Shown: positions 5,544 to 50,203, counted from the first letter of the stretch. The stretch: 64,000 bases of DNA from a virus (IMGVR_UViG_3300028805_002025:177682-241681); one strand, 5' to 3'. The notes: generated by a model from the letters alone, not told the origin. Numbers and translations are program-made.

Positions 5544-5759
5544 ATGAAGAAGATTATAAGACTTACAGAATCAGACCTTCACAAAATCGTGAAAGAATCA
5601 GTAAACAAAATACTTGGAGAACTTAAAGGATACACATATGACCCTACAGATGGAGGGTATTATGATAGATTTGGAAATGAGGCTGAATACGATGAAGATG
5701 GCGTGCCTTATGACCCATACGAATATGAAGGAGAAGATTATCTGGGTAATCCAGTATAA
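5544..5759 (+). CDS. Small acidic protein with putative capsid-targeting leader
   Basis: MKKIIRLTESDLHKIVKESVNKILGE followed by a Tyr/Asp/Glu-rich tail. Confidence 0.75.
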   Translation: MKKIIRLTESDLHKIVKESVNKILGELKGYTYDPTDGGYYDRFGNEAEYDEDGVPYDPYEYEGEDYLGNPV

Positions 5760-5764
5760 ACAAT

Positions 5765-5795
5765 AAAAGGACTCAAACGCTTGAGTCCTTTTTTA
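5765..5795. terminator. Bidirectional terminator
   Basis: AAAAGGACTCAA-acgc-TTGAGTCCTTTT between convergent genes. Confidence 0.75.
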
Positions 5796-6636
5796 TTATC
5801 TTTATATCCTTAGGATTAAATATAACGTAATTCTTGAATTTCTTCCCTGTTTCAGTGTTTGTATGCACCCACACAAGTCCTTTATAGCCAAGTTTATCAT
5901 GTAGGAATTCACTTGTTTCCTTGTCACTACCAAGGAAAGACGATATTGTGCCATAAAGTGTGTTTCCATCTGTTGAATGACCAATATATTTGCATTCCTC
6001 ATCCCAGAACTCTCTTTCATAACCAGCATACGCCTCACTGCCATACTCATGTTCCTTCGTATAGTAGTTAAAGAAAACACGTGCAATTCTCATTGCCAAT
6101 GCTGGACTTATTCTATCAAGGTTAAGATATCCCTTATCTGGTATTTCAACAGTATATATCATGCCTACCTGCGAATATTCCTTGGCACATTCATAACTTG
6201 TGGTAAGATAAGCACCATATCCATAAGCTTGCTGTCCCCATCCGCTTGACATATAGGCAAAATCGAATTCATTGAAATCATGTGGCGAGCCATGAAACAG
6301 CTCAAGTTCATCAATAGCTTCCATGATGTATCTGCTAATCTTAGATTCCCAGGCATAATCTTTTCTACCAGCAGGCTCTATGAAACCGTCTGGATTATAG
6401 TCTTGCCTCATGACGGGATGTTTAACCTCTGGAGCACAGCATTTCTTGAACAGAGGAAAGTCCCTTGCAATCTCTGTTTTCAGACTGTTAACATAGCCAC
6501 CCTTTCCTCCGACACGCTTAAATCCATATCCTTTCAGCTTGGCAAATTTGTGTATTGCTGCTGGTGGTGGAACTGTTGGTAGGTTATATGCCTTGGCAAT
6601 ATCCCTTGCTATTGTCTTTGGGTCTAAAATCTTCAT
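5773..6636 (-). CDS. Protein with C-terminal ADP-ribosyltransferase-like (ART-PolyVal type) domain
   Basis: LFHGSPHDFNEFD...GQQAYGYGAYLTTS...AKEY...YVIFNPKDIKII pattern; ATG at 6636 is preferred over TTG at 6645. Confidence 0.7.
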   Translation of the reverse strand: MKILDPKTIARDIAKAYNLPTVPPPAAIHKFAKLKGYGFKRVGGKGGYVNSLKTEIARDFPLFKKCCAPEVKHPVMRQDYNPDGFIEPAGRKDYAWESKISRYIMEAIDELELFHGSPHDFNEFDFAYMSSGWGQQAYGYGAYLTTSYECAKEYSQVGMIYTVEIPDKGYLNLDRISPALAMRIARVFFNYYTKEHEYGSEAYAGYEREFWDEECKYIGHSTDGNTLYGTISSFLGSDKETSEFLHDKLGYKGLVWVHTNTETGKKFKNYVIFNPKDIKIIKKDSSV

Positions 6637-6661
6637 AACAAACAATTTTTTATATAAATAT

Positions 6662-6692
6662 TTTGTTTTTTAACTTTTTTTATATATCTTTG
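6662..6692 (+). promoter_or_regulatory. Bacteroidota sigma-A-type promoter of the DNA polymerase gene
   Basis: TTTG (6662-6665), 19 nt spacer, TATCTTTG (6685-6692). Confidence 0.75.
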
Positions 6693-6754
6693 CAATATGA
6701 AGCGATGACTATACAATGTAGCCTACAACTTCAATTAACTTAACAATTATTTAT

Positions 6755-9700: not shown

Positions 9701-10048
9701 GAAATCGAATTCTGGACAAGTATTAATGAAGTTCCTCCGTTCGTTAAGGAATGTAATATTGATTGGGATGGTCTCGTAGCAGACTTGAAGAAAACCAAGG
9801 AAACTGAAAATGACTATGTATATCAGCTTGAGAATAAGAAATACCTTGATGCCCTCAATGAACTCACAGATGCAGATGTAAATGCATTTGAAGAAGATGG
9901 TAAATTACCAAGTTCTATTTCAAGTATTATGACGCTTGGTTCTGATATGAGACTCTATTTCAAGAAGATACCAGAGAGAACACCTTCAACAGGTGGATAT
10001 GTATTTGATGATATAATGTACAGCTTTATTGAAAACGCTGAAGGATAA
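6755..10048 (+). CDS. polB: Family B DNA polymerase with 3'-5' exonuclease
   Basis: Exo motifs DLET, GHNSENFDW, YLLDD; polymerase motifs DYNSLYPS, KILANSFFG, GDTDG. Confidence 0.95.
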   Translation: MKQITSEVVNTFLNGHDPMEHIITIECDYQDDRVSIVFVNDKGEKRVRLDDFKPFLWCKNSAAIRLFGGDRKELISQMRRYGISCKRLTTSDDGNVSDRLENGYKYMFYANRRMSYQKFLSFFKDAGVPVHESKKNGQTGETNREYMVVTPVEQYMIQTGKRLFKGYENYNDLNRFIFDLETQGLNPRIHRIEQIGIHTNRGFDKIISVTGNTKEELDASELNAIDMFLYILSITKPDTVVGHNSENFDWDFLIVRCEELGADFKEMSLKYFKHPIYKKQKESVLKLGGEVEYYRPTVMWGHIILDSLHASRRAQAIDSNMKKSNLKYVTKYLDLKKPNRVYVPGDKITKTWAVTEEKYGFCDEDGDWYLVTEKHKLLPGYKMVSGRYIVERYLLDDLWETDKVEDKLNESNFLVGKMLPTTFSRACTMGTAGIWKLIMLAWGYENNLAIPAAAPNKRFTGGLSRLLKTGYVDRIVKLDYNSLYPSIILTWHVSTPIDTMNVMLSFLEYILTQREKYKNLKGEAGDKAKELEKQLKAYEGQDEMFKKKLAEEIQYWKIEKSGNDKKQLPLKILANSFFGSYGAPNIFPYGDVIAAEKTTCIGRMSLRLMIYHFTGIGYTPIVGDTDGFNFQMPREEDFRYTADHPYIGKGLGRNTVKGKEYTRVEADVAEFEDLFMAQAYNGGVNKMGLGIDEYCDATINFARKNYADLMPNGKTKKVGNTIKSRKMSGYLEKFIDDGVDLLLRNNGYKFLSNYYDYIEKIYNYQIPIKDIASKGNIKKTIKDYIADCNTLTKSGSKKSRQAWYELVIKEDVKVNVSDTIYYINTGTKKGHSDVKRVTHYFTFDNNGEKVEITKEVEKLYKEQKGKTRLELAKEAYPKAYEEDEIILNCKLVPNDIVDSEEDVLCSDYEGLEYNVEKYIDQFNKRITPLLVCFHPDIRNKILITDPKDRKFFTEQESKLVNGYPNKPEDQDTFEALMTPERKEIEFWTSINEVPPFVKECNIDWDGLVADLKKTKETENDYVYQLENKKYLDALNELTDADVNAFEEDGKLPSSISSIMTLGSDMRLYFKKIPERTPSTGGYVFDDIMYSFIENAEG

Positions 10049-10085: not shown

Positions 10086-10092
10086 AACATAT

Positions 10093-22197: not shown

Positions 22198-25038
22198 TCA
22201 TCCTATTTGTGTTATTCTCACATAGCCATTACCAGAGTGGCCTGTCTCACTACCGCTGGACGTTGATGGGAATGACGTGTTGCCGCCTTTGGTCTCAGCA
22301 TTGGAAAGATAATAATCGCTACCAAGGATATAACCACTTGGCTTATAACTACTTGAAGTTAATACATAGCCAGAGCCTCCTCCAGCAGGACCTCTACGTG
22401 CGCCGCCGCCGCCGTACCAACCGCCGCCACCGCCAGCGATTCTACTAGATGTGTCAGTTGTGGAATTTCCTCCTCCAGTTCCAAACGATGCTGAAACTGG
22501 TCCAGTTCCATCAACAGCAGCACCTGGAGCTGATTGACCGCCTCCAGTACCATATCCTTGATAATAGCTAGAAGGAGTGCCTCCACTTGTTCCTCCTCCA
22601 TAACCACCAGGATAGTAGTACTGTGCAGTGCTTCTGGTTCCGCCGCCACCGCCGCCACCAGCTACTATAGCACGTGCATATAAACTATCTGTACCTATTC
22701 TAATATCTGACGCGCCTCCGCCAGCACCATTGTTATAGTTACTACTTGGAGCATATGCTCTACCTCCTCCATTGAAACCTCCGTTTATTATTTGTCCAGT
22801 AGAACTACCGCCTGAGCCTCCTACATAAACATACACTGTAGTGGCAGTATTTAATGTTAAAGTTCCTTTAGAATAGCCACCTTTACCACCAGCCGAAGAA
22901 GTGGAGCTATATCCAGCGCCTCCTTGCGCTCCCCAACATTCAAATGTATATGTACCTGGTTGTAGAATAACGGTCTGTTTAGAACCAGTATAAGTATAGT
23001 TGTTTATAATAGGCTCAAATTGGCCTTCAATGGTTATGCCATAACTACCAGATGCATCATTATAGTTTGTACCTCCAGTAATTGTAGCTGTAATTGTCAC
23101 ACTTCCTTGTGCTACTCCTGTAACAACTCCGCTACTATTAACCGTTGCCTTGCTTGTGTCAGAAGAAGAATAAGTTAATGTTCCATCAGATGAACCAGCA
23201 GATACATTTGCTACATTTGATACCGTACTACCAACAGTGACAGATGTTGTTGGGTTAGAGAAGGTTACAGTACGGCTGGCTTTGTACACTTGAACTGTTA
23301 CATAACTTGACCAAGGTGACGCATTGTAATTTGCATTGCCAGTCCAACGTGCCCTAGTTGTGTGAGAGCCAACAGAAGTCTGAGACTGTGCGCTTTCCCA
23401 CTCTATAGAGCCTACGCCACCACCGCCACTAGCTGTTGCAGTTGCAGTAGTTGGATATGTAGTCGTAGCACCTACAGCAGTTGGTGCTGATTGGTCTGCC
23501 TTGGCAATCGTTGTGCTTGCGCTTGCTGCATTCGTTCCACCACTATGATTTGAATCTGGAACTGCTTTCCACCAAGTAACATATGTTCCAGCATTTGTCT
23601 GTGTTGGAACTGTAGTTGTATAAGTACCTGTCTGTGAAGCACTATACTCTATAGAGCCGCCATTTGCAGTGCCTCCACTCATCAATGCTCTTGCAGTATT
23701 ATCATAGGTATACGTAGTGGCACTTGGTGCAATATAAGTCATAGCTGCCTTTGCAATAGAACAAGCTACACTACTAGAAGCGGTACAACATACATTAGTG
23801 TTGCCAGTTACCTTCCAATACACAGTGTATGATGTAGCATTTGTTCCACTAGGTACTGATGTGCTCCAAGACGAATTATCTGTAGAGTATACCATTGTAC
23901 CGAAAGAAGTATAACCAGCATTTACAAGTGCTTGAGCACTACCATTCCAAGTAAGACTCTTTGCTGTAGGCGCAGTACATTCTGCACAAGTAATCGTAAA
24001 TGTCTTGCTACCACTTACAGTATAATTACCACCAGCGTTATCAGTAATGGTACAAGTACCAGTACCTACATTAGTATTGTTACTATAACTTACAGTATAT
24101 TCACTGCTTGCAATAGTCACGCTATCATCCTTAACCGTTGGGGTTGGCTGATAAGCGGTGTTGTTGTACACATACGAATTTTGAGATAATGTTATGATAG
24201 GACTGCTTACGGTCTTAGGGAATACAGTAGTACTAATACTAGCTGATGCCTTATCATTATGGTTTGAATCTCCTACAATTCTCCAATATGTTGTATAAGT
24301 ACTAGCATTGGTCTGTGAAGGTATGGTAGCACCCCAAGTACTGTTGTCGCTACTATATTGCATTGTACCGTCACTAGTAGAGCCACCATTCAACAATGCC
24401 TTTGAAGTTGTATCATAAGTTCTGTCGTTTGCTGTAGGTGAAGTATATGCTGGGTCAGCCTTTGCTATTGAAACTGATATACTATTTGCTGCAACATCAT
24501 TTATGTTAGAATCTCCAACAACTATATAATAAACAGTATAAGATGCGGCGTTAATACCACTTGGAATTGATGTACTATATGATGAATTATCCAAACTATA
24601 CTGTAATGTACCGTAGTTTGTAGAACCTGCATTAACCAATGCTTGTGCTGAACCATTATAAGTTAAACTCTTTGCTGTTGGCGCAACTACTGTTGGCGTT
24701 ACTTTGTTAATTATAAACGTGCCGTTTGCTGTACCTTCATAATCGCCAACACCAGATATAACTACCTCATATGAACCAGCATTTATACCTCCAAAGTTTT
24801 GTGTAACGATATAGTCAGTGTTTTCTATTAAAGTAACACCATTTAATCTAACAGTAATGTCTTGCGCTATTTGATTACTACCATTATACGTAACGCTAGC
24901 ACAAGTTACTATGGCATCATCAATAGGCTTACTAAGTGGATATAATAATGTGTAGCCAAGGTACAATTTTACATCATTGTTGCCTAGTTTTAGACTCTTA
25001 ACATTTAAATCTCCAATATAGAATTTGCTATTAGCCAT
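22198..25038 (-). CDS. Fibre/adhesin: Ig-like repeats, Big_2 and glycine-rich tip
   Basis: N-terminal repeats paralogous to 16998..19571; C-terminal ~365 aa paralogous to 10529..11671. Confidence 0.75.
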   Translation of the reverse strand: MANSKFYIGDLNVKSLKLGNNDVKLYLGYTLLYPLSKPIDDAIVTCASVTYNGSNQIAQDITVRLNGVTLIENTDYIVTQNFGGINAGSYEVVISGVGDYEGTANGTFIINKVTPTVVAPTAKSLTYNGSAQALVNAGSTNYGTLQYSLDNSSYSTSIPSGINAASYTVYYIVVGDSNINDVAANSISVSIAKADPAYTSPTANDRTYDTTSKALLNGGSTSDGTMQYSSDNSTWGATIPSQTNASTYTTYWRIVGDSNHNDKASASISTTVFPKTVSSPIITLSQNSYVYNNTAYQPTPTVKDDSVTIASSEYTVSYSNNTNVGTGTCTITDNAGGNYTVSGSKTFTITCAECTAPTAKSLTWNGSAQALVNAGYTSFGTMVYSTDNSSWSTSVPSGTNATSYTVYWKVTGNTNVCCTASSSVACSIAKAAMTYIAPSATTYTYDNTARALMSGGTANGGSIEYSASQTGTYTTTVPTQTNAGTYVTWWKAVPDSNHSGGTNAASASTTIAKADQSAPTAVGATTTYPTTATATASGGGGVGSIEWESAQSQTSVGSHTTRARWTGNANYNASPWSSYVTVQVYKASRTVTFSNPTTSVTVGSTVSNVANVSAGSSDGTLTYSSSDTSKATVNSSGVVTGVAQGSVTITATITGGTNYNDASGSYGITIEGQFEPIINNYTYTGSKQTVILQPGTYTFECWGAQGGAGYSSTSSAGGKGGYSKGTLTLNTATTVYVYVGGSGGSSTGQIINGGFNGGGRAYAPSSNYNNGAGGGASDIRIGTDSLYARAIVAGGGGGGGTRSTAQYYYPGGYGGGTSGGTPSSYYQGYGTGGGQSAPGAAVDGTGPVSASFGTGGGNSTTDTSSRIAGGGGGWYGGGGARRGPAGGGSGYVLTSSSYKPSGYILGSDYYLSNAETKGGNTSFPSTSSGSETGHSGNGYVRITQIG

Positions 25039-25050
25039 AACAATGAATTA

Positions 25051-26052
25051 TTAATCTGTTATTATGTATAATGTATTTTCATCTTTTGACTGAAGATTTG
25101 TATAATCTGTTTGAGAAATCTTCATAAGTCGTATTCCGTCAAACCTACTTTCTAGCTTTCCAATTGCTTGGTTCAATGTGTCACTAGTTTGTATTGGACT
25201 AACAGTGCCCCCACTTGAATAACCAGTCATTGCTGAAATTGTGTTTGATGCTTGTTCATGACTATTACTTGCATATTCACTGTGAGTGTGATTTCCAACA
25301 GCAACTGTACTGTTTGTAGTGCCAGTGTTTAGGAATGCCGCATTACCAAGTCCTGTTACATTAACATCTACCCCCTCAACAGAAATAGTACCGTTTGAAG
25401 AGCCACTTGTAAAGTCCAATGCACCAGTATTAATATCAGTACTTAGTACTTGTGTTCCGTTAACATTTACATCACGCCAAGTATTAGTATCTGGTACATT
25501 TGTGTTACCGCTTGTAACACGTCCATAATCATCTACAACAACGGAGCTATATATGCCAGCAGTTCCTGTTGTTGCAAGACTAATACTTTGGCTACCGTTT
25601 TCTTTTGCCCCAACAGAAATACCAGTTCCATTTGTAACACCACTCAACGCACCAAGTCCTGTTAAATCAGAAATTGTAACGTCAGTGCCAGCAGTGATAT
25701 GCCCATATGAATCTGAAGAAAGTTTCTTAAACCCATTTTGAGAGATACCATTAGCGTGTGTTATTGTAATAGTCCTACCACTAGCGGCTTTATCACTTAA
25801 TGATACTAAAATTTTAGTATCGCTAGTGACACTTACTACATCCCCACTATCAGCGTATGATTCAGCTTCAGCAAGGGCAGATATACAATTAATGAATGGT
25901 ATTATGGTATCGTTTGAATTCTTAATGTAAAGAACCTCATTACCAGCCCCATATCCAACAGCTATTTCTCCATATAACAAATCAGCAGCAGATGGTGCTG
26001 TAGTACCACTGCTCTTTAAATGAGAAATATGTCTAGCTATATTTTTTGCCAT
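25051..26052 (-). CDS. Tail fibre segment/adaptor
   Basis: N-term anchor (P...LLYGEIAVG...LYIKN), VVVDDYGRVTSG fibre motif, C-term ISQTDYTNLQSKDENTLYIITD. Confidence 0.7.
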   Translation of the reverse strand: MAKNIARHISHLKSSGTTAPSAADLLYGEIAVGYGAGNEVLYIKNSNDTIIPFINCISALAEAESYADSGDVVSVTSDTKILVSLSDKAASGRTITITHANGISQNGFKKLSSDSYGHITAGTDVTISDLTGLGALSGVTNGTGISVGAKENGSQSISLATTGTAGIYSSVVVDDYGRVTSGNTNVPDTNTWRDVNVNGTQVLSTDINTGALDFTSGSSNGTISVEGVDVNVTGLGNAAFLNTGTTNSTVAVGNHTHSEYASNSHEQASNTISAMTGYSSGGTVSPIQTSDTLNQAIGKLESRFDGIRLMKISQTDYTNLQSKDENTLYIITD

Positions 26053-26131
26053 ATTTGAAAATGTATTAATTTTAAAAAATTAAGTGGATAATTTTATAAA
26101 AATATCCACCTAATTTATTTTATGTGATAAT

Positions 26132-28324
26132 TTAATCAAATGTTCCACAATCATATATGTTTGAAAGTTTCAAACCATCGTTTTCTATGGTAAGTCTTCC
26201 ACTATCATTAGATGCAGAAAGTGTCAATTCTATTGTGCTTGCAAAGCCATCCTCATTAGGGGTTTCTGTTACGGCAATACCGCCATTAGCACTTGTAATT
26301 GTTCGTCCAGAAATAGCGGATTTTCTTGCAGCAATTTCGCTCTTCAAACTTGCATATAGATTTTCTATACCAGTTTGTACAGAATCTGTTGCAGACACAC
26401 CACTTACCTTTGCAGCACCACTTGTAATATCAGCCTCTGCGGTCAATCCACTAATCTTTGAAGCATCTGTTTCAATGTTATATGTTTTATTGCCAACTGC
26501 ATCATCTATAGAGGCTGCGATACTACCATTATTTGACGTAATAGCAGTAACAGTTTTTCCACTCAATGCTTCAAGGTCATTAGCATTTGCAATGTTGCTT
26601 TCGCTAACTGTAACGGCGGTAATCTTACCATCAACCTCTTCAACTCCAACGGTTACGTGGGTAGAATTGCCACTAACATCAGCATCAAGTCCTGCTACAG
26701 AATTGGCAAGAATAGCATCAGCATATCTCTTAGCACCTTCAATAGAAGTGTCACCACTTACTGAACTAGAATTTCCGCTTAATGCTGCAAATTCTTCAGC
26801 AACTGCCTGTGCAGATGCAATGTCATCCTCAGTAACTGTAACGGCAGTCAATACGCCATCAGCTTCTCCTACTGTTACAGAAATGTGAGTTGTAGCACCG
26901 CTTTCAACAGCATCAAGAGCATTAACTGCTCCGTCAATAGCGTCTTGTACACCAGAAAGCTTGAAACCATTAGCCCCAACAGTCAAGAATGCTTCAGAAG
27001 ATGGGTCTACAACACCATGAGCAACATGGTCTGTAACTGTAATGCCACTAGCAAATTCAGCCTCCAAAACAAGTGAAGAAATATCGACATATTCAGTCTG
27101 GGTATTACCGCTTACGTCAATGTAAGTATATTTAAGATTCTGATCATGTATGTCTGATGAATCCGTAATATATTCAATACTTACAACTGAGCTGTCTTTA
27201 TAAACCTTAATTGAAGCACCCAATTGGCTTCCATCAGTTCCAATAAGTGCAAACTCTTCTTTAACCGTTGTTGAAGAAGGAGTTATACCACTCAACTTGA
27301 TGTCAGTATAAACACCAGCATCACCATCTTTTGCAAGCACGTGCTCATTAGTTTTGATATTAACACTAATGTCAGTTCCACTTACAGTAGGTGTTACATT
27401 AATAGAACCGTCTTCGTCATTAATAGTAATGGAAGCTGTTTTATTTTCTAATTTACTCAATGCAACGTTGATTGTGTCATCAGAAGCAATGCTACCAGTA
27501 TCATTGGTTTTTGAATATCCACCAAGTTGCAAATCTTTAACGTTGGTTTTTGTTTCAGATACAACGCCATCAGACTCAGATACTGTTGTTACAACCTTAC
27601 CATTTTCAGCAGAAGCTGCCTTATCCATTTCATGAATGGTCTTCTGTAATTTACCAAGAGCTTCACCTAGAGTATCACCTGTAGCCACATCAGCAACAGA
27701 AGAAGCCTCAGCATATCCAGCTAATTTAATACCACTAATATTAACAGATGTGCCGCTTACTGCGCCGTCAGTCTGATTAAGGCTTACAAGAACCTTATTA
27801 TCATCAGCAGCTAGATTATAGTCAAGTGCCTCAATTGCAGCCTCTCTAGCATCTTCTTCTGCGTCTATCTGATTCTCAAGTTTTGCAATTGCTTGATTAA
27901 TTGAATCCGTAGAAACAACAGAACCACTATCACTACCTTTTGCGTATTCAGTAAGTTTCAATGTGCCAACATTAGCAGTAAGGCCACTAATTTTTCCATC
28001 AGCTTGCTGAATTTGTGTTAATACTGATGAATCAGTACCGCCAATAGGTCCATAATCAAGGCCATCAAGTACGTTTTCGAACTCCTTGTCATTGTTAAAG
28101 AATGTAACTCCTGTAGTGTTACCATTTACATAAACCACTCCAAGTATTGTGCGCACTTCTGTGCTTTCTCCAACCGTTACTGTATAACGTCCAGCAATAG
28201 GGCTACCATCAAGAAGTTGGAGTTGTTGGGCTTTAGCAATCAAGCCTTTTTTTGCAGATGCCATATCCGAATAAGTGGATAAGTTAGCATTACGCAAAAA
28301 TTGAATTGTTCTTAAATTTGCCAT
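26132..28324 (-). CDS. Tail fibre segment
   Basis: RTIQFLRN start, repeated DSINQAIAKLE-type units, C-term DCGTFD. Confidence 0.7.
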   Translation of the reverse strand: MANLRTIQFLRNANLSTYSDMASAKKGLIAKAQQLQLLDGSPIAGRYTVTVGESTEVRTILGVVYVNGNTTGVTFFNNDKEFENVLDGLDYGPIGGTDSSVLTQIQQADGKISGLTANVGTLKLTEYAKGSDSGSVVSTDSINQAIAKLENQIDAEEDAREAAIEALDYNLAADDNKVLVSLNQTDGAVSGTSVNISGIKLAGYAEASSVADVATGDTLGEALGKLQKTIHEMDKAASAENGKVVTTVSESDGVVSETKTNVKDLQLGGYSKTNDTGSIASDDTINVALSKLENKTASITINDEDGSINVTPTVSGTDISVNIKTNEHVLAKDGDAGVYTDIKLSGITPSSTTVKEEFALIGTDGSQLGASIKVYKDSSVVSIEYITDSSDIHDQNLKYTYIDVSGNTQTEYVDISSLVLEAEFASGITVTDHVAHGVVDPSSEAFLTVGANGFKLSGVQDAIDGAVNALDAVESGATTHISVTVGEADGVLTAVTVTEDDIASAQAVAEEFAALSGNSSSVSGDTSIEGAKRYADAILANSVAGLDADVSGNSTHVTVGVEEVDGKITAVTVSESNIANANDLEALSGKTVTAITSNNGSIAASIDDAVGNKTYNIETDASKISGLTAEADITSGAAKVSGVSATDSVQTGIENLYASLKSEIAARKSAISGRTITSANGGIAVTETPNEDGFASTIELTLSASNDSGRLTIENDGLKLSNIYDCGTFD

Positions 28325-39442: not shown

Positions 39443-39766
39443 ATGAGACACCCTAAAGGATACTGGAAAAACAAGGAAAATATGATGACTGAAGCCAGAA
39501 AATATTCAACAAAGGAGGAGTTCCAGAAAGGAAACCTTACTGCATTCCTAGCCGCCCATAAATACGGTTATATAGATAATATGGACTGGATGGTTAAACA
39601 GAAGCAACACAAGAAGGGGTATTGGACTTACAAGCACATAGAAGAGGAGGCACTGAAGTACGATACCAAGACTGAGTTCTTCAAGGGGAATCAAACAGCA
39701 TACAGGGCTGCTCTGAAGATGGGTGTGATTGATGATTTCTTCGGACTTAATGACTATGTACAATAA
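39443..39766 (+). CDS. Small protein made of two homing-endonuclease-associated repeats
   Basis: KGYW...EA.KY.TK.EF.KGN.TA..AA.K.G.ID repeated twice; no nuclease motif. Confidence 0.65.
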   Translation: MRHPKGYWKNKENMMTEARKYSTKEEFQKGNLTAFLAAHKYGYIDNMDWMVKQKQHKKGYWTYKHIEEEALKYDTKTEFFKGNQTAYRAALKMGVIDDFFGLNDYVQ

Positions 39767-39792: not shown

Positions 39793-40041
39793 CTAATCAT
39801 CTTGTCCGTGAAATTTGTAACCAAGTTTTTTTGCTCTATTTTTGCCACCATTTGGGTAATATCCGTGCATTGGACTTACTTCTTTTTTATCGTGGTCAAT
39901 TACATAGTTTGTATAACCATCTTTGCCAGTTACAAACTCAAGATTTCCATCTCTTCTGTTCTCATTCAGTATCCTATTCACGCACTCCTTCACAATTCTG
40001 TGAAGGTCTTGTTCTGTTAATCTAATCAATTTTTTATTCAT
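39793..40041 (-). CDS. Small protein with putative capsid-targeting leader
   Basis: MNKKLIRLTEQDLHRIVKECVNRILNE; ATATTTAT at 40075-40082. Confidence 0.75.
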   Translation of the reverse strand: MNKKLIRLTEQDLHRIVKECVNRILNENRRDGNLEFVTGKDGYTNYVIDHDKKEVSPMHGYYPNGGKNRAKKLGYKFHGQDD

Positions 40042-40164
40042 ATTATAATATGTATTTATTTCGTTATTTTAATAATAAATATCAGCAATTTTTCGCCCAT
40101 ATGTAAGTCTATTAGATTTGTTTGTAAGTGGCTTGAAATTAAGGTTGAACTGATGGCGGTTTAA

Positions 40165-40593
40165 TCATCTTTTATTCAATCCAACAACATCTATGACAAA
40201 ACTCTTAAGACTGTTATATGCGTCAAAAAGATATTGTTTATTGCCATATTCTGTTCTCCCCATTATTTCTTTAATTGTCTCAGCCATTTTATTTAACGTT
40301 TTAATATCTTTATAATCTATATTATCAGGCATATTATATAGTCTTTCATTTAATACTCCATTTACAGACTCTTTTACTATCTGATGTAAGTCTTGTTCTG
40401 TTAATCTTATAATATTTTCCTCAACCTTCTCTGGGAGTCCCTTGTGTTTTGTTTCCGCAAAATCCTTTACATCATCCATTGACATCCCCTTTGCAGCTTT
40501 CTTTATCTTGCTGCTTGGATTCTTCATTTCACCCTTCTTGTATGCATCCACCATACCGAAGAACCTCTGCTGTGCTTTACTTTTGCTTGGCAT
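40165..40593 (-). CDS. DUF3008-like domain, internal targeting motif and small cargo domain
   Basis: MPSKSKAQQRFFGMV...VKDFAETKHKGLPEKV, then IIRLTEQDLHQIVKESVNGVLNE. Confidence 0.75.
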   Translation of the reverse strand: MPSKSKAQQRFFGMVDAYKKGEMKNPSSKIKKAAKGMSMDDVKDFAETKHKGLPEKVEENIIRLTEQDLHQIVKESVNGVLNERLYNMPDNIDYKDIKTLNKMAETIKEIMGRTEYGNKQYLFDAYNSLKSFVIDVVGLNKR

Positions 40594-40624: not shown

Positions 40625-41557
40625 TTACCTTATAACTTCACCAGTAAGTTGTTCAACTTTTTCTATTGGCATATATCCAACTTCTTGCAACGGCTTAAAT
40701 ACTTCACTGAATGGTTTTCCAAGCAATTCGCTTATTTCAGATTCATCAAGTGCAAAATCGACAAATTTATCCTTACTAAAAGTTGCATCATGATTCCACC
40801 TCACGTTGCAGGTATCAAGGTCTCCATTTTCATCAACGATTACGAAAATCATACTCAAACCATAATCATCATAAGCATTCTTGTCGTTATAGTGGAAATA
40901 AATACTCTCGACCATATCCCAATTTTCATTGAGCATTATATACATAGCATTCATACCATCGCAAGTATAATTATTCCACGTGTCAAGACTCCTTGTGTAA
41001 CAAATCACATCACCAGTATCGTGACTATCGGTATACATACCGAAATATTGGGCAACCTCGAAGGTCACAGGTCCGATAACCGTGTAATTACCCTTACTAT
41101 ATGTTGACTCATTGTTGGTAGTACCATTTTTCCTGGTGTATTCATTGTCAACAAAGTTACTAAACGACTCACCATCGACGAGAGTATTCTTGAGTTCAGA
41201 CACATAGTTCAGCATCGCCAGTCTTCCATTATTTGCTTCAATGGTCTTACACTTCGTATGTATGTACTGAATCATCTTCCTAATGTTGAACCCAACGGTG
41301 TTGTTTGAAAACGCACCGATTTCAGCAGCAATGACATAGAAATTAGGCTCTAGGACAATAAACCAGTCATCATTAACACCCTCATAGCCGAAATAATACC
41401 TTTTAAACCTCTGCTGCATTTGTACAACAGTGTTGTTGACAGGAACACCTAGACGTTGTGCTATTACCTCCTGTGTGTGTCTGTCAGCTCTTCTGCTATT
41501 TGTACTCTCAGTCAAAAATATCTTCTTGAAACTGTTCTCCATCAAATGTATTATCAT
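40625..41557 (-). CDS. Hypothetical protein with targeting-like leader
   Basis: MIIHLMENSFKKIFLTE start; ICYT...YDDYGLSMIFVIVD...RWNH C-terminal domain. Confidence 0.7.
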   Translation of the reverse strand: MIIHLMENSFKKIFLTESTNSRRADRHTQEVIAQRLGVPVNNTVVQMQQRFKRYYFGYEGVNDDWFIVLEPNFYVIAAEIGAFSNNTVGFNIRKMIQYIHTKCKTIEANNGRLAMLNYVSELKNTLVDGESFSNFVDNEYTRKNGTTNNESTYSKGNYTVIGPVTFEVAQYFGMYTDSHDTGDVICYTRSLDTWNNYTCDGMNAMYIMLNENWDMVESIYFHYNDKNAYDDYGLSMIFVIVDENGDLDTCNVRWNHDATFSKDKFVDFALDESEISELLGKPFSEVFKPLQEVGYMPIEKVEQLTGEVIR

Positions 41558-43560: not shown

Positions 43561-43572
43561 ATAAATATTTAT
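43561..43572. promoter_or_regulatory. Bidirectional late promoter palindrome ATAAATATTTAT
   Basis: Perfect palindrome between divergent starts 43535 (minus) and 43593 (plus). Confidence 0.7.
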
Positions 43573-43592: not shown

Positions 43593-44561
43593 ATGAAGGT
43601 GATTAAATTAAACGAATCCCAATATAACATTCTATTTGAAAACATCAAATCTAGAAATATTCATATAAATGAATCATCAGACGATGAATATTCAAAATTT
43701 TATGATTATCTTGAAGATTATGATGAATATTATGTTTTACATGAATTCTTCTTTAATAATAAAGGAAAACAAGATTGGGGTATATTAATTAATCCTAATA
43801 TGTATGCAAAAGCATTACGTGAATTCACAAAATATGGCAAACTGATTAATTTCCCTTCAAAATATGTTTATCAGTGGATGGGAATCATTATGAAGAACAC
43901 AGCTATACTAGCGTCAAACACGAATCTTGCTGGACATTCTGGTTATTTCCCAGGAGATTTGGTTGCTGAACTTGCTGCATCAATTGATGGTATTGCGATT
44001 GGGGAAAATTATGAAGAAGGGGGTGGATGGCTTGAAGAAAAAGGATTTTACGATTGGACAGAGATGCCAGATGGAAGTGATGCTTTGAGCGACTACGGTA
44101 TTGAACCATTGGTGAAAATATTTAAAGAATACAATGAAAATTTACCTCCAGAAAAAGTTCTTGTATTAATTAATAGGGCATTAGATGTATATCATCAAAG
44201 AGGTGATATGGCTTCAATATTCATCCAAGGTGGTAGCAAAGTACTTTCTAAGATTTCTGAAAATGTTAAAAGAAGCATTATAAAAGCACGTATAAATGAA
44301 ATAAAGAAAAATATTATGAAGGTAATTAAATTAAACGAATCTCAATATAAGAGGCTGTTTGAAGACATTGAATTCTATGGTGAGGAAAACCCATCTTCTA
44401 TACCAGACGAACAAACACATGACCAGACATGGGTTACTTCAACTATGGATAAAGGTGATGAAGGTAAAGAAAAGGGTATTCCACCAGGAGTACTTGGAAA
44501 AGACCCACATAATGATTTTAGTCCTAACGACAGATACGGTACTTTTAGAAACGCAAGATAA
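43593..44561 (+). CDS. Protein with two copies of a targeting-like leader flanking a cargo domain
   Basis: MKVIKLNESQY..LFE at 43593 and again at 44316; ATG at 43593 is preferred over TTG at 43572. Confidence 0.7.
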   Translation: MKVIKLNESQYNILFENIKSRNIHINESSDDEYSKFYDYLEDYDEYYVLHEFFFNNKGKQDWGILINPNMYAKALREFTKYGKLINFPSKYVYQWMGIIMKNTAILASNTNLAGHSGYFPGDLVAELAASIDGIAIGENYEEGGGWLEEKGFYDWTEMPDGSDALSDYGIEPLVKIFKEYNENLPPEKVLVLINRALDVYHQRGDMASIFIQGGSKVLSKISENVKRSIIKARINEIKKNIMKVIKLNESQYKRLFEDIEFYGEENPSSIPDEQTHDQTWVTSTMDKGDEGKEKGIPPGVLGKDPHNDFSPNDRYGTFRNAR

Positions 44562-45118
44562 TGGCTATTATTTTAGAGTTCGATAAAAAGGTAGGTAACA
44601 AAGGTATGAACGTACCATTGAAGTTACAACAGGATTCCAGTACATTGCTAAATGCACTGGATAATGCTGGTGTACCTAAGCAGAACCTTAAGAACTTAAG
44701 GAGTCTTGCAGCTACAAAGACATATAACAAAAAGAAGCCTGGAAGCAAGAATGATAAAGAACAAGCTGGAACAAACTACATAACTGCTGATGTTGCTAAA
44801 AAAAGAAAGCAGAGATGGCCAGACAATCCTACAATGGCTAAACTACAGGGTGGTAAAAAAGCGTTGGACTTCTATACCAAGGTCGTACAGATGGCTAGTA
44901 GACAACAGGAGGTTTCACCAGTTGAACCACCAAAACCAACAGCACAAAAGGCTTCAAAACCAGAGATTCCAAAGGCAAAGGAAATTCCAATGCCAAACGG
45001 CAAGATAAAACTGACAGCTTCAGTTGAGCCTAAAAAGGTTATGAGTGAAGGAAAGAAAGTTTACATAACAGAAGAACAAGTTCTAAAAATTAAAGATTAT
45101 GGCAAAGAGTCCAATTGA
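44561..45118 (+). CDS. Basic hypothetical protein
   Basis: Coupled to the upstream stop; C-term KKVYITEEQV resembles the targeting motif. Confidence 0.7.
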   Translation: MAIILEFDKKVGNKGMNVPLKLQQDSSTLLNALDNAGVPKQNLKNLRSLAATKTYNKKKPGSKNDKEQAGTNYITADVAKKRKQRWPDNPTMAKLQGGKKALDFYTKVVQMASRQQEVSPVEPPKPTAQKASKPEIPKAKEIPMPNGKIKLTASVEPKKVMSEGKKVYITEEQVLKIKDYGKESN

Positions 45119-45665
45119 AAGAACATTAGATAGGATAGGAAACGTTGTGCAGGATATTTTCACAGGTCCTTCAGAACCACCTGTTGTTAAGTCAATGAAT
45201 GGCAGTACTACAGGTCAAACGTGCCTTGAGAAGGTTGGTATGGAAGCAAGAAAGACCCACCTCATGAGGAATGAGTGGAGAAAAGACCTTGAGTATTCCA
45301 AGCCTCTTGTTCTTGCTGAATATGAAATACAGACTGAGTTTAAGGTTTCAACTGCTGACGACGATGTTGCAACACAATTGATGAATACCCAGCAGAAGGA
45401 GCGTGAAAAAGAATTAAAAGCCCAAGAGAAAGCTAAGAAAAAAGCTGACAAAAAGGCTAAACAAGAAGCTAAAAAACAAACGCAAGTAGCTGGTGTTCCA
45501 GAGGATGCTCAACCTGCTGGTGCTAACACCAAGACAGAACCTGCTGAAACCACCATACAACCAGAGAGACAGACACTTACTCAAGTGGTAAACTCACAGG
45601 CTAAGCAGAATTACATACCTAACATAGGAAACGAAATGTTTATACATGGTTTCGGTAGGGTGTAA
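45099..45665 (+). CDS. Hypothetical protein
   Basis: Overlaps the upstream gene; GQTCLEK motif shared with the next gene. Confidence 0.7.
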   Translation: MAKSPIERTLDRIGNVVQDIFTGPSEPPVVKSMNGSTTGQTCLEKVGMEARKTHLMRNEWRKDLEYSKPLVLAEYEIQTEFKVSTADDDVATQLMNTQQKEREKELKAQEKAKKKADKKAKQEAKKQTQVAGVPEDAQPAGANTKTEPAETTIQPERQTLTQVVNSQAKQNYIPNIGNEMFIHGFGRV

Positions 45666-45722
45666 AAAACAGATGATAACTATTTATTATTAAAATAAAA
45701 TATTTAAAATTTATAGAGAATT

Positions 45723-46151
45723 ATGGCAAATACTATTCCAAACGGACAGACATGTCTTGAGAAGAGAGGTATGGAGGAGAGACACCAGGAGATTACTCGT
45801 AGTGACTATAACATCGAGAATCAGTATGGTGCAACACATAAGGACGCTACCAGCGACGGTGACGCACAGGGTAAGGGAACAGGACACGGTGGACACACCC
45901 ACTTCCTCCCAGACTGCACGAAGCCAACCAACATGATTAACTACAGCAACTTCGACACTGAAAACGGTGGTGGTTGCTATGATATCAAGGGTAGAAACGG
46001 TATCAGCGGACGTGAGAGAGCATTGGCTATCTCAATGTACAACAAGGAGAACCCTTATGGTGCAAACCTTGTAGATACAAGTGCAAACGTAGCTGACGGA
46101 CAGTACTATGTTGGACAGCAGCTCGGTAGTCCTAATTCAAACTGCGGATAA
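45723..46151 (+). CDS. Hypothetical, likely virion, protein
   Basis: CTATTTAT upstream (45680-45687); GQTCLEK motif; Gly/Asn-rich. Confidence 0.75.
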   Translation: MANTIPNGQTCLEKRGMEERHQEITRSDYNIENQYGATHKDATSDGDAQGKGTGHGGHTHFLPDCTKPTNMINYSNFDTENGGGCYDIKGRNGISGRERALAISMYNKENPYGANLVDTSANVADGQYYVGQQLGSPNSNCG

Positions 46152-46163
46152 TAGAACTAACCG

Positions 46164-46991
46164 ATGAATCACATTGACCTGTCTTTATCCAACATCCTGG
46201 AGTCAATGAGGCTTAACGAAGATTCAAACCTAGCTGACTTCAGAGATAATAAGGATAAAATAAACTATGCCATCGACAACAGGCTGATGATATCACTGTA
46301 CTATGACGATGGAAAAGGTGATAAAGGGAGAAAACCAGCCTACGGAAACCCAAGAGGATTCCGTAGGATAATTCCTTATTGTCTTGGAAGTAGGAAGGGC
46401 AGGTTGGCATTGAGAGGCTTTCACGCATGGAAAACCCATACAAAGAAAGGACCATTCAAGTGGAAGTTCTTTTATCTTGATAGAATGAGTAATGTTAGGG
46501 TATACAAGAACATGCCTATACCTTACATTCCAGAACTTGCAAACCCAGATGGCGACTCGCATATGGATGAGATTATAAATATGATTGGTATGCAGAAGTT
46601 CCAAAGTCCACTCGACAGAGAGAAACAGACTACACAGGACTTGAAAAATACTACGTCATCAGAGCTTAACAAGCAGGGTGCTATAAAGCAGCTCAACAAG
46701 GGTGGTCTTAAATCTCTTCAGAATCTTAAACCAATACCTTCAAAGACAAAGAAGGTACAGTATAACTTCCAGAATACTGCCAAGAACCTACAGGACTTCG
46801 AGAAGCAGAACACTGAAATGAACAGAGATAGAAGGTGGGCTGACTACGATAAGGCTGAAAGAGAAAGACAAGAACAGGTAAAACAAGCTGAAGCACCTAA
46901 CCCTCCAACCAGTAATTCTGGACCTGTCAGCCAAAATGATATGGAAGGTTACGAACAAAACATGAATAATAATAACAAAGAAAATAGATAA
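46164..46991 (+). CDS. WYL-domain-like protein with low-complexity tail
   Basis: AIDNRLMISLYY...RRIIPYCLG...LRGF...WKFFYLDRM fits the WYL pattern. Confidence 0.65.
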   Translation: MNHIDLSLSNILESMRLNEDSNLADFRDNKDKINYAIDNRLMISLYYDDGKGDKGRKPAYGNPRGFRRIIPYCLGSRKGRLALRGFHAWKTHTKKGPFKWKFFYLDRMSNVRVYKNMPIPYIPELANPDGDSHMDEIINMIGMQKFQSPLDREKQTTQDLKNTTSSELNKQGAIKQLNKGGLKSLQNLKPIPSKTKKVQYNFQNTAKNLQDFEKQNTEMNRDRRWADYDKAERERQEQVKQAEAPNPPTSNSGPVSQNDMEGYEQNMNNNNKENR

Positions 46992-47000
46992 TCATTTAAT

Positions 47001-47636
47001 ATGACAATCCAGGAAGAAAGAGCAGCAAAGATTAAGGCTGCAAGAAATAAGTCCCTCAGACTGATGCAGATGGACGCAAACGGTACACTTGACAAGATTG
47101 CTGAGGGTAAGAAAGATAAGATAAACGAATCATTCACTGATGTTGAAATGGTATCTGGAGATATGATGCAAGCACCAAGGCAAAATATGGCTGCAAACAT
47201 AGCATCTGGAAGAATGAGTGTAGCAGCAGGAAACGTACCTTCAATTATTAGGGAGTCATTCCAATCACAACCACCTCTCGCACAGCAGGAAGTAACCAGC
47301 TCAGTACTTGATGGTATGTTCGGTGACTTACTCCAGGAGAGACAGAAACCACAACATGTTATTACTGAGACTGTGCAACAGCCACAGCAGGTAGTACAAC
47401 AGTATCCATCACAGATTGACTACCCTATGATTAGAACAATCGTAGAGGAAATTGTAAGAAAATATACATCATCACTCAGTAAGAAGATGATTAATGAAGG
47501 TAAGGGTAGTGAAGTAAATACAATAAGCCTTGGTAAATCATTCAAGTTCCTTGCTAACAATGGTGACATTTATGAGTGCTCTATGAGAAAAGTTTCTAAT
47601 ATTAATGATGTTAAGAAAAAAGGTTCAATCACGTGA
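47001..47636 (+). CDS. Hypothetical protein, possibly head/scaffold-associated
   Basis: 211 aa ORF in a late operon; several I/L-x-E sites (KINE, IIRE, VITE, MINE). Confidence 0.7.
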   Translation: MTIQEERAAKIKAARNKSLRLMQMDANGTLDKIAEGKKDKINESFTDVEMVSGDMMQAPRQNMAANIASGRMSVAAGNVPSIIRESFQSQPPLAQQEVTSSVLDGMFGDLLQERQKPQHVITETVQQPQQVVQQYPSQIDYPMIRTIVEEIVRKYTSSLSKKMINEGKGSEVNTISLGKSFKFLANNGDIYECSMRKVSNINDVKKKGSIT

Positions 47637-47648
47637 TTGAACCTTTTA
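47616..47648. terminator. Bidirectional terminator
   Basis: AAAAGGTTCAATCACGTGATTGAACCTTTT perfect palindrome. Confidence 0.75.
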
Positions 47649-47742
47649 TTATTTTATATATTTTATTAACTATAAATATTTGTTTCTTATCATATGCCTT
47701 TTATCTTTTAAACAGAAGAAATAATTTTTTAATATATTAAAA

Positions 47743-48960
47743 ATGGATAAGAAAATCAAAATGTTAGTGATTCCTTCCGACAGAACTGGTGTCGGAAAGT
47801 TTCGTTCAGTAGACCCACACGTTTATATCGGAGAACATTACAGTGATGAATTCGATGTGGATATTGTCTATAATATGCCTAACGGAGACCTTGAGGCATT
47901 TCTAAGGCAATATGACTTGATACACATCCATAAACAGCTAGATAAACAGTGCAAGATTATGGATATGATTAAGTTCCTGGGCATTCCAGTCATTATAGAT
48001 ATTGATGACCACTTCAAGCTTGGTGACGACCACCCAATGTCACTTACCGCAAAGAAGGAGAAGTGGCACGAGCCAATCATAGAACACCTTAAGAAAGCTG
48101 ACTATGTAACCACTACCACAGACATCTTTGCCAAGGTCATCAAGAAATATAATCCGAATGTGAAGGTATTCCCTAATGCAATCAACCCAGAAGAGCCACA
48201 GTACGCTGTTCCAAAGACAGAGGGCGATGGTAGGCTGAGAGTTGGTATCATTTGCGGTTCTTCACACTTAAAAGACCTTCAGTTGTTGAATGGTATTGCA
48301 AAGCAGGTTGATAAGTCAAAGGTACAGTTTGTACTCTGTGGCTTTGACACCAGGGGTAACAGAACCATCTACAACCAGGATACTGGAGAGAAAACGACCA
48401 GGCCAATTCTTCCACAGGAGAGTGTATGGTGTGATTATGAAAAAATCTTTACAGATGATTATAAGACAGTATCACCAGAGCATAAGGAGTTCCTTATGAA
48501 GTACATTGCAAATGTTGATGACCCATTCACCAATGAACCTTATCGTAGAATGTGGACTAGGGACATCAATAACTATGCCACGCACTACGCTAACGTGGAC
48601 GTGCTTATTGCTCCACTGAAGGAGAACGAATTTAATGGCGTTAAGTCAGAGCTTAAGGAGATTGAGTGTGGATTCACACACACTGCATTCATTGCACAGA
48701 ACTTCGGTGCTTATACCATCAACTTGATTCCTATGATTGAGAAGGGTGGAAAGATTAACGAGAACGGCACAGCACTGCTTGTAGACCCACGAAAGAACCA
48801 TAAGGACTGGGCTAAGTATATTAACAAGCTTGCAAACGACAGAGAGATGCTTAAGAAGCTCCAGGACAACCTATATAACTTCGTGAAGGACAGATACTCA
48901 CTTGAGATGATTTGTAAGCAGAGAGTTGAGTTCTACAAGAGTCTTGTGAATAAAGAATAA
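47743..48960 (+). CDS. Glycosyltransferase (GT-B fold)
   Basis: IIDIDD, ADYVTTTT, FPNAI, DVLIAPL..NEFN..KSELK..E motifs; near-consensus early promoter at 47679-47709. Confidence 0.85.
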   Translation: MDKKIKMLVIPSDRTGVGKFRSVDPHVYIGEHYSDEFDVDIVYNMPNGDLEAFLRQYDLIHIHKQLDKQCKIMDMIKFLGIPVIIDIDDHFKLGDDHPMSLTAKKEKWHEPIIEHLKKADYVTTTTDIFAKVIKKYNPNVKVFPNAINPEEPQYAVPKTEGDGRLRVGIICGSSHLKDLQLLNGIAKQVDKSKVQFVLCGFDTRGNRTIYNQDTGEKTTRPILPQESVWCDYEKIFTDDYKTVSPEHKEFLMKYIANVDDPFTNEPYRRMWTRDINNYATHYANVDVLIAPLKENEFNGVKSELKEIECGFTHTAFIAQNFGAYTINLIPMIEKGGKINENGTALLVDPRKNHKDWAKYINKLANDREMLKKLQDNLYNFVKDRYSLEMICKQRVEFYKSLVNKE

Positions 48961-48999
48961 AAAAATAAGGAGATAGATTGGTTTCTATCCCCTTTTTTT
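48959..48999. terminator. Bidirectional terminator
   Basis: AAGGAGATAGA / TCTATCCCCTT between convergent genes. Confidence 0.7.
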
Positions 49000-49792
49000 A
49001 TTTATACTTTGTGGTTATTCCTAATTCATTATGACTCATGTCTACTGGTAATCTGTCATCATTTGTTCCGCTTCCAAGATTGTCTCCCCACTTATACCTT
49101 ATTAACTCAGCACAATCTCTAAGCTTGCTTGTAATCTTGTGTATATCCCTTGGTTTACCACTGTATATAACAAGACTGCTAAGACCATGTGATGTCATGT
49201 AGCCGTTAATCACACTAGGCTTCATTCCACCTGGTAACGGTACATCGTTTGCCTTTGCAAGCTTCTGTAGCGTCTGACATTTATTGTACAAAGCCGTGAA
49301 TACGTCAGCAAGTTCCTCAAGTGGTTTAGGTAAGTCCTTAATTCTGTACAGTACGCCACTTCTATCACCCTGTCTAGCCCAGTTTTCAATATCACTGGTA
49401 AGTTTGCTAACCTCCCTGTATTTAGTGTGGAATGGAGTAAGTGTGCTTTCGAAAAAGTTCCAAAAAGCATTAGCATTATTCTTTCCATACATACCACATA
49501 CATTCTTGTTAAAACTGAGAATGTTTTTAAGTGCCTGGCAATCCCATTCGTTCCTAAGAACCCTTCCAATCTGGTTAGGTGTCTCGGCATCATCAAGACT
49601 CTTCACCACCTTTCTCTTCCTAGGTGTTGCCTCTTCTGGTGGAGGTCCACCAGGGCCGTATTTCTTAATCCTCTTCTGCTTTGTAGTACCTCCATACAAG
49701 TTAGCCCAAGCCTCATTAGGGTCTACTAGTCTAGCTTCTGAGAGTACAAAATTGTCTATGGATTCCTTTATTATTTTATTAATCTTATCCAT
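48998..49792 (-). CDS. Hypothetical protein with targeting-like leader
   Basis: MDKINKIIKESIDNFVLSE start. Confidence 0.7.
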   Translation of the reverse strand: MDKINKIIKESIDNFVLSEARLVDPNEAWANLYGGTTKQKRIKKYGPGGPPPEEATPRKRKVVKSLDDAETPNQIGRVLRNEWDCQALKNILSFNKNVCGMYGKNNANAFWNFFESTLTPFHTKYREVSKLTSDIENWARQGDRSGVLYRIKDLPKPLEELADVFTALYNKCQTLQKLAKANDVPLPGGMKPSVINGYMTSHGLSSLVIYSGKPRDIHKITSKLRDCAELIRYKWGDNLGSGTNDDRLPVDMSHNELGITTKYK

Positions 49793-49807
49793 ATCTCTTT
49801 ACTCTGG

Positions 49808-50203
49808 TTAAGCTTGTTCTTCGTTCATTAAGTTCATGATTGATTCCATTACAGCACGTCTGATACGAGATTCCATGTGGTTAGCCTTCTTCCAACCGAT
49901 TGTGTCTGCTGGAAGCTCAGCCTGTGAAGGTATTGAATTAGCTGGCTTAAGCCTGTCACCGAACTCTGCTTTATCCTCTGGGAAAGCTCTTGAATTATTA
50001 TCAATTGCATCCATTTGGTCGTCAAACAATCCAGTACCAACGCCAGCCACACCAAGACCAGCACCCAATACACCAGTACCTACTGCCTTAGCAACATCTT
50101 TTCCAAAACCTTCATTAACTGCTCCTTCCTGGATAGCACGTTTAACTGAAGTTTCTACTATATTCTTAAGTTCTGATTCTGTAAGTCTTACAATTTTCTT
50201 CAT
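49808..50203 (-). CDS. Small protein with targeting leader and glycine-zipper segment
   Basis: MKKIVRLTESELKNIVETSVKRAIQE; AVGTGVLGAGLGVAGVGTG; ATATTTAT at 50224-50231. Confidence 0.75.
   Translation of the reverse strand: MKKIVRLTESELKNIVETSVKRAIQEGAVNEGFGKDVAKAVGTGVLGAGLGVAGVGTGLFDDQMDAIDNNSRAFPEDKAEFGDRLKPANSIPSQAELPADTIGWKKANHMESRIRRAVMESIMNLMNEEQA

Follow-up and report, generated by a model that had tools for sequence, protein, structure and literature searches.

A portable 26-residue peptide on unrelated proteins of giant ruminant-gut phages: a candidate tag for loading cargo into the phage head

Why would a phage place almost the same short peptide on proteins that are otherwise unrelated? 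The question is raised by a stretch of viral DNA of 64,000 nucleotides (IMGVR_UViG_3300028805_002025:177682-241681, hereafter called the window), which is the final 64 kb of a 241,681-bp IMG/VR virus contig with a CheckV completeness of 75%; near-identical DNA is present in sheep gut metagenomes (public runs). A preliminary description had noticed a recurring peptide of about 25 residues on several proteins of the window and had proposed that it carries cargo into the capsid. With slightly better than even confidence, we read this peptide, called the tag in the following, as a portable head-loading tag, a variant of the T4 internal-protein system, in T4-like jumbo phages of ruminant-gut Bacteroidota.

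A profile hidden Markov model (HMM) built from six exact-pattern copies was searched against all six frames of the whole contig and led to nine significant copies (E 1e-18 to 9e-5). The consensus has 26 residues and reads M-K-K-I-I-R-L-T-E-S-D-L-H-x-I-V-K-E-S-V-x-x-I-L-x-E. Four copies lie within the window, exactly where full copies had been described:

5544..5621, plus strand: full tag, N-terminus of the 71-aa protein 5544-5759, which has an acidic tail (HMM E 1e-18)
39961..40041, minus strand: full tag in the MNKK form, N-terminus of the 82-aa protein 39793-40041 (HMM E 5e-18)
40345..40422, minus strand: full tag, internal, residues 58-83 of 40165-40593 (HMM E 1e-16)
50126..50203, minus strand: full tag, N-terminus of the 131-aa protein 49808-50203 (HMM E 4e-15)

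The other five are found outside the window, at genome positions 72770, 72525, 72262, 73360 and 83420. The internal tag of 40165-40593 is flanked by an N-terminal DUF3008 domain and a tail of 59 residues, and the 131-aa protein contains a Gly-rich hydrophobic stretch; an ESM Atlas look-up of the latter matched unnamed viral clusters only. Both domain assignments made before for this region hold, as DUF3008 (PF11450; residues 4-57 of 40165-40593) scores 34 bits against a Pfam cut-off of 24, and the ADP-ribosyltransferase (ART) domain ART-PolyVal (PF18760; residues 114-287 of 5773-6636) scores 31.4 bits against 31.2 (E 3.7e-7), the second being marginal.

Residue shares computed over 372 public tag copies revealed Glu at positions 9 and 26 in 100%, together with Leu7 (95%), Thr8 (93%), Ser10 (86%), Leu12 (94%), His13 (84%), Lys17 (86%), Glu18 (90%), Ser19 (93%) and Val20 (92%). 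Position 24 is Leu, Ile or Val in 96%, confirming the hydrophobic-x-E ending that had been seen in the window. Conservation ends at Glu26, and the residue that follows is Gly, Ser or Ala in 41% of the copies. Pfam holds no model for the tag, and a literature search with the string LTESDLH and the term DUF3008 found no paper.

A word-indexed search with the 71-aa protein, which itself has metagenome orthologs keeping the same tail, led to more than 120 small proteins that start with M(N)KK(I/L)IRLTESDLHKIVKESVN(R/K)(I/V)L(K/N)E and diverge completely thereafter. An exhaustive search of 1.84 billion cluster representatives with the tag profile gave 6,261 protein clusters at E<=1e-3 and 866 at E<=1e-10, many of the matching proteins having two to four copies. 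Relatives of the contig were found through the tag; the five near-complete ones (95-100%; G001-G005) carry 9-19 copies each. No Pfam family recurred among 148 tagged representatives, and one DUF3008 was the only Pfam family found among 120 longer tagged proteins. When 268 proteins were cut at their tags, 355 modules belonging to 208 unrelated families were obtained, and 32 of the 110 modules that follow an internal tag have a homolog directly behind an N-terminal tag elsewhere. This double occurrence suggests that tag and module behave as a unit able to stand alone or to be chained, and the chained, tag-jointed polyproteins show evolutionary shuffling of the cargo. The portability that had been postulated is thereby borne out for N-terminal and internal positions and for hundreds of unrelated modules. 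The picture of a library of cargo domains is not borne out: ART and DUF3008 are present, but almost all modules are small domains without a known family and not enzymes. Internal full tags are mostly preceded by ...E-S-K-N-M, that is, the former start Met is kept and an extra Glu-Ser lies about 12 residues upstream (e.g. P0123, P0127, P0133); Glu-Ser is a recurring dipeptide at module ends, in E-S-K-N-M as well as in L-T-E-S and V-K-E-S.

The copies in the contig differ at synonymous sites. In a set of 92 distinct tag DNA copies, taken from this genome and from 79 related loci, Ser10 is encoded by TCN (44) or AGY (35), and the invariant Leu7 and Leu12 use 4-5 codons. Codon entropies are below the genome-wide values, mostly within about a quarter, with the Arg and Thr positions much narrower. 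This synonymous freedom indicates that the conserved object is the peptide and not a DNA or RNA element. As a separate observation, contig depth over the tag-coding stretch of window 5388-5612 rises 2.5- to 7-fold in four sheep-gut runs, with many contigs diverging right past the tag and a peak of depth and loose ends at 5554-5612, from which it appears that the community has many different genes starting with near-identical tag DNA.

The carriers are an uncultured group of T4-like giant phages from ruminant guts. Peptidase_S77, the family of the T4 prohead protease gp21, was detected over the Pfam cut-off in nine of ten tag-bearing contigs of 211-413 kb, and Gp23 in all five tag-bearing genomes tested. 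The capsid protein of G005 matches T4 gp23 structures (E 7e-28), the portal of G001 matches Portal_T4 (E 1e-87), and the same genome has a T4-type terminase. From an approximate, ungapped extrapolation of the gp23 alignment, the mature N-terminus of the G005 capsid protein is placed near residue 45, right after G-I-K-E. Gene order in G001 is terminase, portal, a 765-aa and a 144-aa protein, two tagged genes, a homing-endonuclease-like gene, protease, a 482-aa acidic protein (24% Asp+Glu) and capsid protein; we take the 482-aa protein as a putative scaffold by its position and composition only. The related genome G005 follows the same plan with four tagged genes, and there a homolog of the following gene of the window is also located between portal and protease, beside tagged genes:

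4151..5488, minus strand: 445-aa putative late protein of no known family, 67% identity to L112 15230-16555 (relative G005)

In G003 the first gene after the protease gene is a tagged one. Tagged genes thus adjoin the prohead protease in three of the five near-complete relatives, and for G001 and G005, whose portal could be placed, their position is between portal and protease. In T4 the order is 20-67-68-21-22-23, with 67 and 68 being prohead core genes; judged by gene order, the tagged genes of G001 and G005 appear to fill the slot of these core genes.

Some additional head-type sequences were seen. The prohead protease of G003 (L113 10810-12633) and G009 (125480-127138) is an open reading frame (ORF) of 607-609 aa, whose S77 match is split by an intein- or homing-endonuclease-like insertion of about 370 residues. 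In the window, residues ~32-103 of the 197-aa protein 57324-57917 (plus strand) are similar to the propeptide and N-arm of the relatives' gp23-type capsid protein (residues 17-88; 38% identity, E 1e-6). It has the appearance of a capsid N-terminus standing on its own, with glycosyltransferase-like genes around it. A full-length, very distant capsid-like ORF occurs at genome position 24840-26246 (20% identity over 381 aa).

Two promoter-like elements, TATCTTTGCA and (T)AAATATTTAT(A), are enriched about 10-fold upstream of genes, with 28 occurrences of the late-type element observed and 2.9 expected. TATCTTTGCA, a TAnnTTTG element presumably of the Bacteroidota housekeeping type, precedes the DNA polymerase gene, an exonuclease gene and other early-type genes. 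(T)AAATATTTAT(A) precedes the sheath gene, four fibre genes, a 945-aa tail gene and similar genes and is therefore read as a late promoter. The TAAATATTTAT element is common to tagged genes, sheath and fibre genes, whereas the DNA polymerase gene has the host-type TAnnTTTG instead. As the preliminary description had stated, genes with the motif stand behind the late element: ATATTTAT was found 25-50 nt upstream of 5544, the ART gene, 40041, 50203, 43593 and 43535, of which 43535 heads an operon with 41557 and 40593, and 49792 follows 50203. The elements in question are:

5510..5521, unstranded: two-way late-type element ATAAATATTTAT between the 445-aa gene 4151-5488 (minus) and the tagged gene 5544 (plus)
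6654..6661, minus strand: late-type element preceding the ART gene
40075..40082, minus strand: late-type element preceding the tagged gene 40041
43561..43572, unstranded: two-way late-type element serving 43535 (minus-strand operon with 41557 and 40593) and 43593 (plus-strand operon)
50224..50231, minus strand: late-type element preceding the tagged gene 50203, with 49792 next in the operon

At 5510-5521 and 43561-43572, ATAAATATTTAT forms a near-palindrome between divergent genes, so that one site may serve both directions. A host-type TATCTTTG is found about 70 nt before the DNA polymerase gene (6755). Contigs from an RNA library cover parts of 3.7-9.6 kb; as contigs they cannot show transcription, its level or its timing.

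From the T4 targeting data and the nested Glu sites of the tag, the following mechanism is proposed. The tagged proteins would be made late, and the tag, predicted as a short strand (K-I-I-R-L) followed by an 18-residue helix, would dock them to the scaffolding core during prohead assembly. A T4-type S77 prohead protease would then act on as many as three nested (L/I/V)-x-E sites, cleaving behind the Glu, with L7-T8-E9/S10, V16-K17-E18/S19 and (I/V)23-L24-x-E26 as candidates. Cleavage would free the cargo inside the head, from which at least some of it would leave with the DNA, and internal tags would give polyproteins to be cut into separate modules. In T4, the ten N-terminal residues of internal protein IPIII suffice for loading foreign proteins into the head, and residues 4 and 7 are the main determinants of targeting, residues 8 and 10 (P3 and P1 of I-A-E) those of processing (PMC9026906, PMC3012670). 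An Asp in place of the P1 Glu prevents processing in T4 but leaves targeting intact (PMC9026906). T4-related phages have differing internal proteins with leaders similar to the capsid-targeting sequence (CTS) (PMC9026906, PMC3012670), and propeptides of phiKZ contain multiple redundant sites (PMC9026906). We also count for head loading that a tag-like joint, ESKISRYIMEAIDE, stands before the ADP-ribosyltransferase domain of the window; T4 Alt is an ADP-ribosyltransferase that is packaged in the head and processed by gp21 (PMC5512222, PMC9026906).

A number of results weigh against head loading. The tag profile matched neither T4 IPI, IPII and IPIII nor anything else in the whole T4 genome; the tag is therefore not homologous to the T4 targeting sequence MKTYQEFIAE and would be an analogue. 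(L/I/V)-x-E sites are common by chance in Glu/Lys-rich helices. With 26 residues compared to ten in T4, the tag may have a role beyond docking or a different role altogether, and its polar positions T8, E9, S10, D11, H13, K17, E18 and S19 are conserved on all faces (76-100%). Such all-round conservation exceeds the need of a simple amphipathic docking helix and is the main reason why we leave substantial weight with other explanations. A tblastn search with a tagged protein gave only chance matches in 50,697 GenBank phage records. The head genes of G002 and G004 have no tagged gene in their vicinity, and tagged genes are also grouped in islands at other places, so the link between tagged genes and the head module is an enrichment and not a rule; G001 and G005 are, besides, related genomes. 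G004 is also without an S77 match. About 45 large ORFs of the present contig were scanned with PHROGs and Pfam, which revealed tail sheath, baseplate and replication genes, but no convincing capsid, scaffold or protease gene; as the last four genes of the contig match G005 at 64.0-66.1 kb and the capsid gene of G005 comes about 6 kb after these, the head module is most likely located just off the contig end. No significant tag-like sequence was detected in scaffold, protease or capsid propeptide of the relatives, although a similar motif had been expected in the scaffold or capsid propeptide: the best ungapped scaffold matches, at residues 31-57, gave shuffle p values of 0.015-0.3 in nine tests and are not significant. 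Co-folding of the tag alignment with the putative G005 scaffold led to a score of 0.00 and is evidence neither way. Finally, the late expression of the tagged genes is inferred, as the promoter class rests on gene association only.

Among the other explanations, an unlikely yet serious one is that the tag is the assembly domain of prohead-core or inner-body proteins, comparable to T4 gp67/gp68 or the phiKZ inner body, which would dock without any need for release or injection. The slot of the tagged genes between portal and protease, that of 67/68, would be expected for such proteins; short, acidic, low-complexity tails are frequent among the cargo, as in core peptides rather than enzymes, and the Pfam scans of tagged representatives and longer tagged proteins found no enzyme domains. 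However, the diversity of the cargo (208 families in 355 modules) and the islands far from the head module fit arms-race cargo better, and the ART domain and DUF3008 do occur. A similarly low probability is assigned to a docking or oligomerisation helix unrelated to the capsid, which would bundle many small late proteins together or bring them to a shared hub, either a host machine or a complex of the phage. The conservation of all helix faces, His13 and the T-E-S-D cap included, points to an interface that is deeply buried and very specific, and many tagged genes are found in islands away from head genes; such a helix would nevertheless leave unexplained why conservation stops at an invariant Glu, why modules occur both chained and free, and why the tag is strictly linked to genomes with a T4-type protease and placed beside the protease gene. 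No more probable than these two is that the tag, instead of being a capsid label, is a universal docking peptide buried on every side in one receptor, by which thousands of differing late phage proteins would be brought to one hub (a host machine or a structure built by the phage), a phage 'address code' of undescribed kind, or that the excised invariant peptide of 17-26 residues is itself a product, at thousands of copies per particle.

We regard an export or modification leader, as in double-glycine bacteriocins or in ribosomally synthesized and post-translationally modified peptides, as very improbable. The logic would be the same, an invariant N-terminal part with a hypervariable remainder, and the first 16 residues of the tag resemble what we take to be a pediocin-type leader, MKKIEKLTEKEMANIIGG. 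The end of the tag, however, is without Gly-Gly and reads I-L-x-E, the cargo reaches 300 residues, the listed sequences when inspected showed no evident excess of Cys, tags are also found internally and in multiple copies, and in the windows read no transporter or modifying enzyme stands beside the tagged genes. Least probable of all is an element acting at the DNA or RNA level, as a translation-start cassette or recombination site, or common descent from a single gene family: metagenome contigs do pile up on the tag and diverge after it, and modules are shuffled at tag boundaries, for which the tag probably serves as a recombination point as a side effect, but a DNA-level repeat is ruled out by the free synonymous variation with Ser in both codon families, no upstream DNA is shared past the short promoter element, and a single paralogous family is ruled out by the 208 unrelated module families.

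Besides the full copies, several partial or variant copies had been described, and the window contains the following candidates:

43593..43640, plus strand: short tag MKVIKLNESQYNILFE, N-terminus of 43593-44561, recurring on unrelated proteins of relatives
44316..44363, plus strand: second short tag, internal in 43593-44561, Met retained
41507..41557, minus strand: looser short-tag form MIIHLMENSFKKIFLTE, N-terminus of 40625-41557, member of the regular-expression family only, not significant by HMM
49820..49873, minus strand: tag-like helix ESRIRRAVMESIMNLMNE, C-terminus of 49808-50203, suggestive only (E 0.49)
6307..6348, minus strand: ESKISRYIMEAIDE, candidate truncated tag or cleavable joint, immediately N-terminal to the ART-PolyVal domain of 5773-6636
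49736..49792, minus strand: MDKINKIIKESIDNFVLSE, weakly like the second half of the tag, N-terminus of 48998-49792 (E 2, not significant)

The two MKVIKLNESQY copies (43593, 44316) are not significant with the long-tag HMM (E 20-50). A short form, MK.I.(L/I)NES.(Y/F).(R/K)(L/V)(F/L)E, is found N-terminally on unrelated proteins, five times in this genome and also in six related contigs, and the ortholog of this genome's MKIRLNESQLRRLFE protein has the long tag in G005. Because of this recurrence and the swap between long and short form in an ortholog pair, MK.I.LNES.Y.RLFE is counted as a second, shorter tag, which ends about where V-K-E lies in the long one. The copies at 43593 and 44316 thus stand as this short form, with 41557 as a looser version, but not as copies of the long tag.

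When the variants were scored with a profile trained on public proteins only, they ranked right below the nine true copies without being significant. MIIKLTESKFKRLFSE, outside the window, gave E 0.009 and MKIRLNESQLRRLFE E 0.09, and the C-terminal ESRIRRAVMESIMNLMNE, similar to a truncated internal form of public polyproteins, was 12th among 4,745 six-frame segments. ESKISRYIMEAIDE, the linker of the ART protein, and KKVYITEEQV had no score with this profile, and the latter is not supported as a partial copy. ESKISRYIMEAIDE reads ESKFSKIIREAIDE in two orthologs, near the internal ES(K/R)L..I(I/V)KESV form of public polyproteins, so that a truncated tag is plausible at this joint. An AlphaFold2 model of the ART protein from three sequences (mean predicted local distance difference test score 55, residues 69-148 below 50) was too poor to judge the exposure of ESKISRYIMEAIDE. 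As partial copies, ESRIRRAVMESIMNLMNE, MDKINKIIKESIDNFVLSE and ESKISRYIMEAIDE are suggestive, none being individually significant. By eye, the C-termini of the proteases L112 12151-12861 and L113 10810-12633, which end with (L-T-)E-K-I-N-K-I-K-x-I-L-N-S, are loosely similar to MDKINKIIKESI, the N-terminus of 48998-49792, and to the second half of the tag.

Some other genes of the window are also of note. The sheath gene 200-3673 is distantly T4-like, with tblastn matches mostly to T-even-type myoviruses and cyanophage myoviruses. The 107-aa protein 39443-39766 (plus strand) consists of two copies of a repeat of about 45 residues, KGYW..KE...EA.KY.TK.EF.KGN.TAY.AA.K.G, and a similar N-terminus is found on the gene adjoining the capsid gene in G001. 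Close to their N-termini, the adjacent proteins 45099-45665 and 45723-46151 (plus strand) have a further small motif in common, N-G-x-T-C-L-E-K-x-G-M-E-x-R. Synteny of the whole block 43593-47636 is seen with the related contig L043, where a tagged gene comes after the block.

As a head-loading peptide, the tag would be most similar to the T4 CTS of IPI, IPII and IPIII, processed by gp21, which is also a short N-terminal peptide with a hydrophobic-x-Glu end on unrelated, fast-evolving small late proteins (PMC9026906, PMC3012670); the carriers described here also have a gp23/gp20/gp21-type head. IPII and IPIII start with MKTYQEFIAE, whereas the present tag has 26 instead of 10 residues, is far more conserved, occurs at internal sites and several times within polyproteins, reaches 9-19 copies per genome, sits on thousands of cargo clusters and is accompanied by a second, shorter tag. 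In phiKZ-like phages (phiKZ, 201phi2-1, SPN3US), many head proteins, inner-body and ejection proteins among them, are cut behind Glu by a protease related to gp21, with several redundant sites in their propeptides (PMC9026906), comparable to the three nested Glu sites here. Their propeptides, in contrast, share no near-identical tag, and these phages lie outside the T4 gp23 lineage to which the present carriers belong. Polyvalent proteins (Iyer et al., 2017, PMC5512222) also consist of several modules; their genes stand with the late virion genes, and their delivery together with the DNA has been predicted. ART-PolyVal of the window belongs to their domain repertoire. Their modules are fused directly, whereas those described here are mostly small, of unknown family and joined by a conserved tag. 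Encapsulin cargo-loading peptides belong to bacterial compartments, are usually C-terminal and are not removed. They too are short conserved peptides directing diverse cargo into an HK97-fold shell, and presumably no encapsulin is involved here.

If the tag indeed loads proteins into the head, a single profile of 26 residues would list the probable virion-packaged proteins of a whole uncultured clade of giant phages infecting gut Bacteroidota, amounting to over 6,000 protein clusters, nearly all without a known function. The T4 equivalents include an inhibitor of a restriction enzyme and an enzyme that rewires the host RNA polymerase; given these functions, such a catalogue would be very promising to search for new anti-defence and host-takeover proteins. 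The tag would then also be a ready-made handle to load chosen proteins into phages of an important gut phylum.

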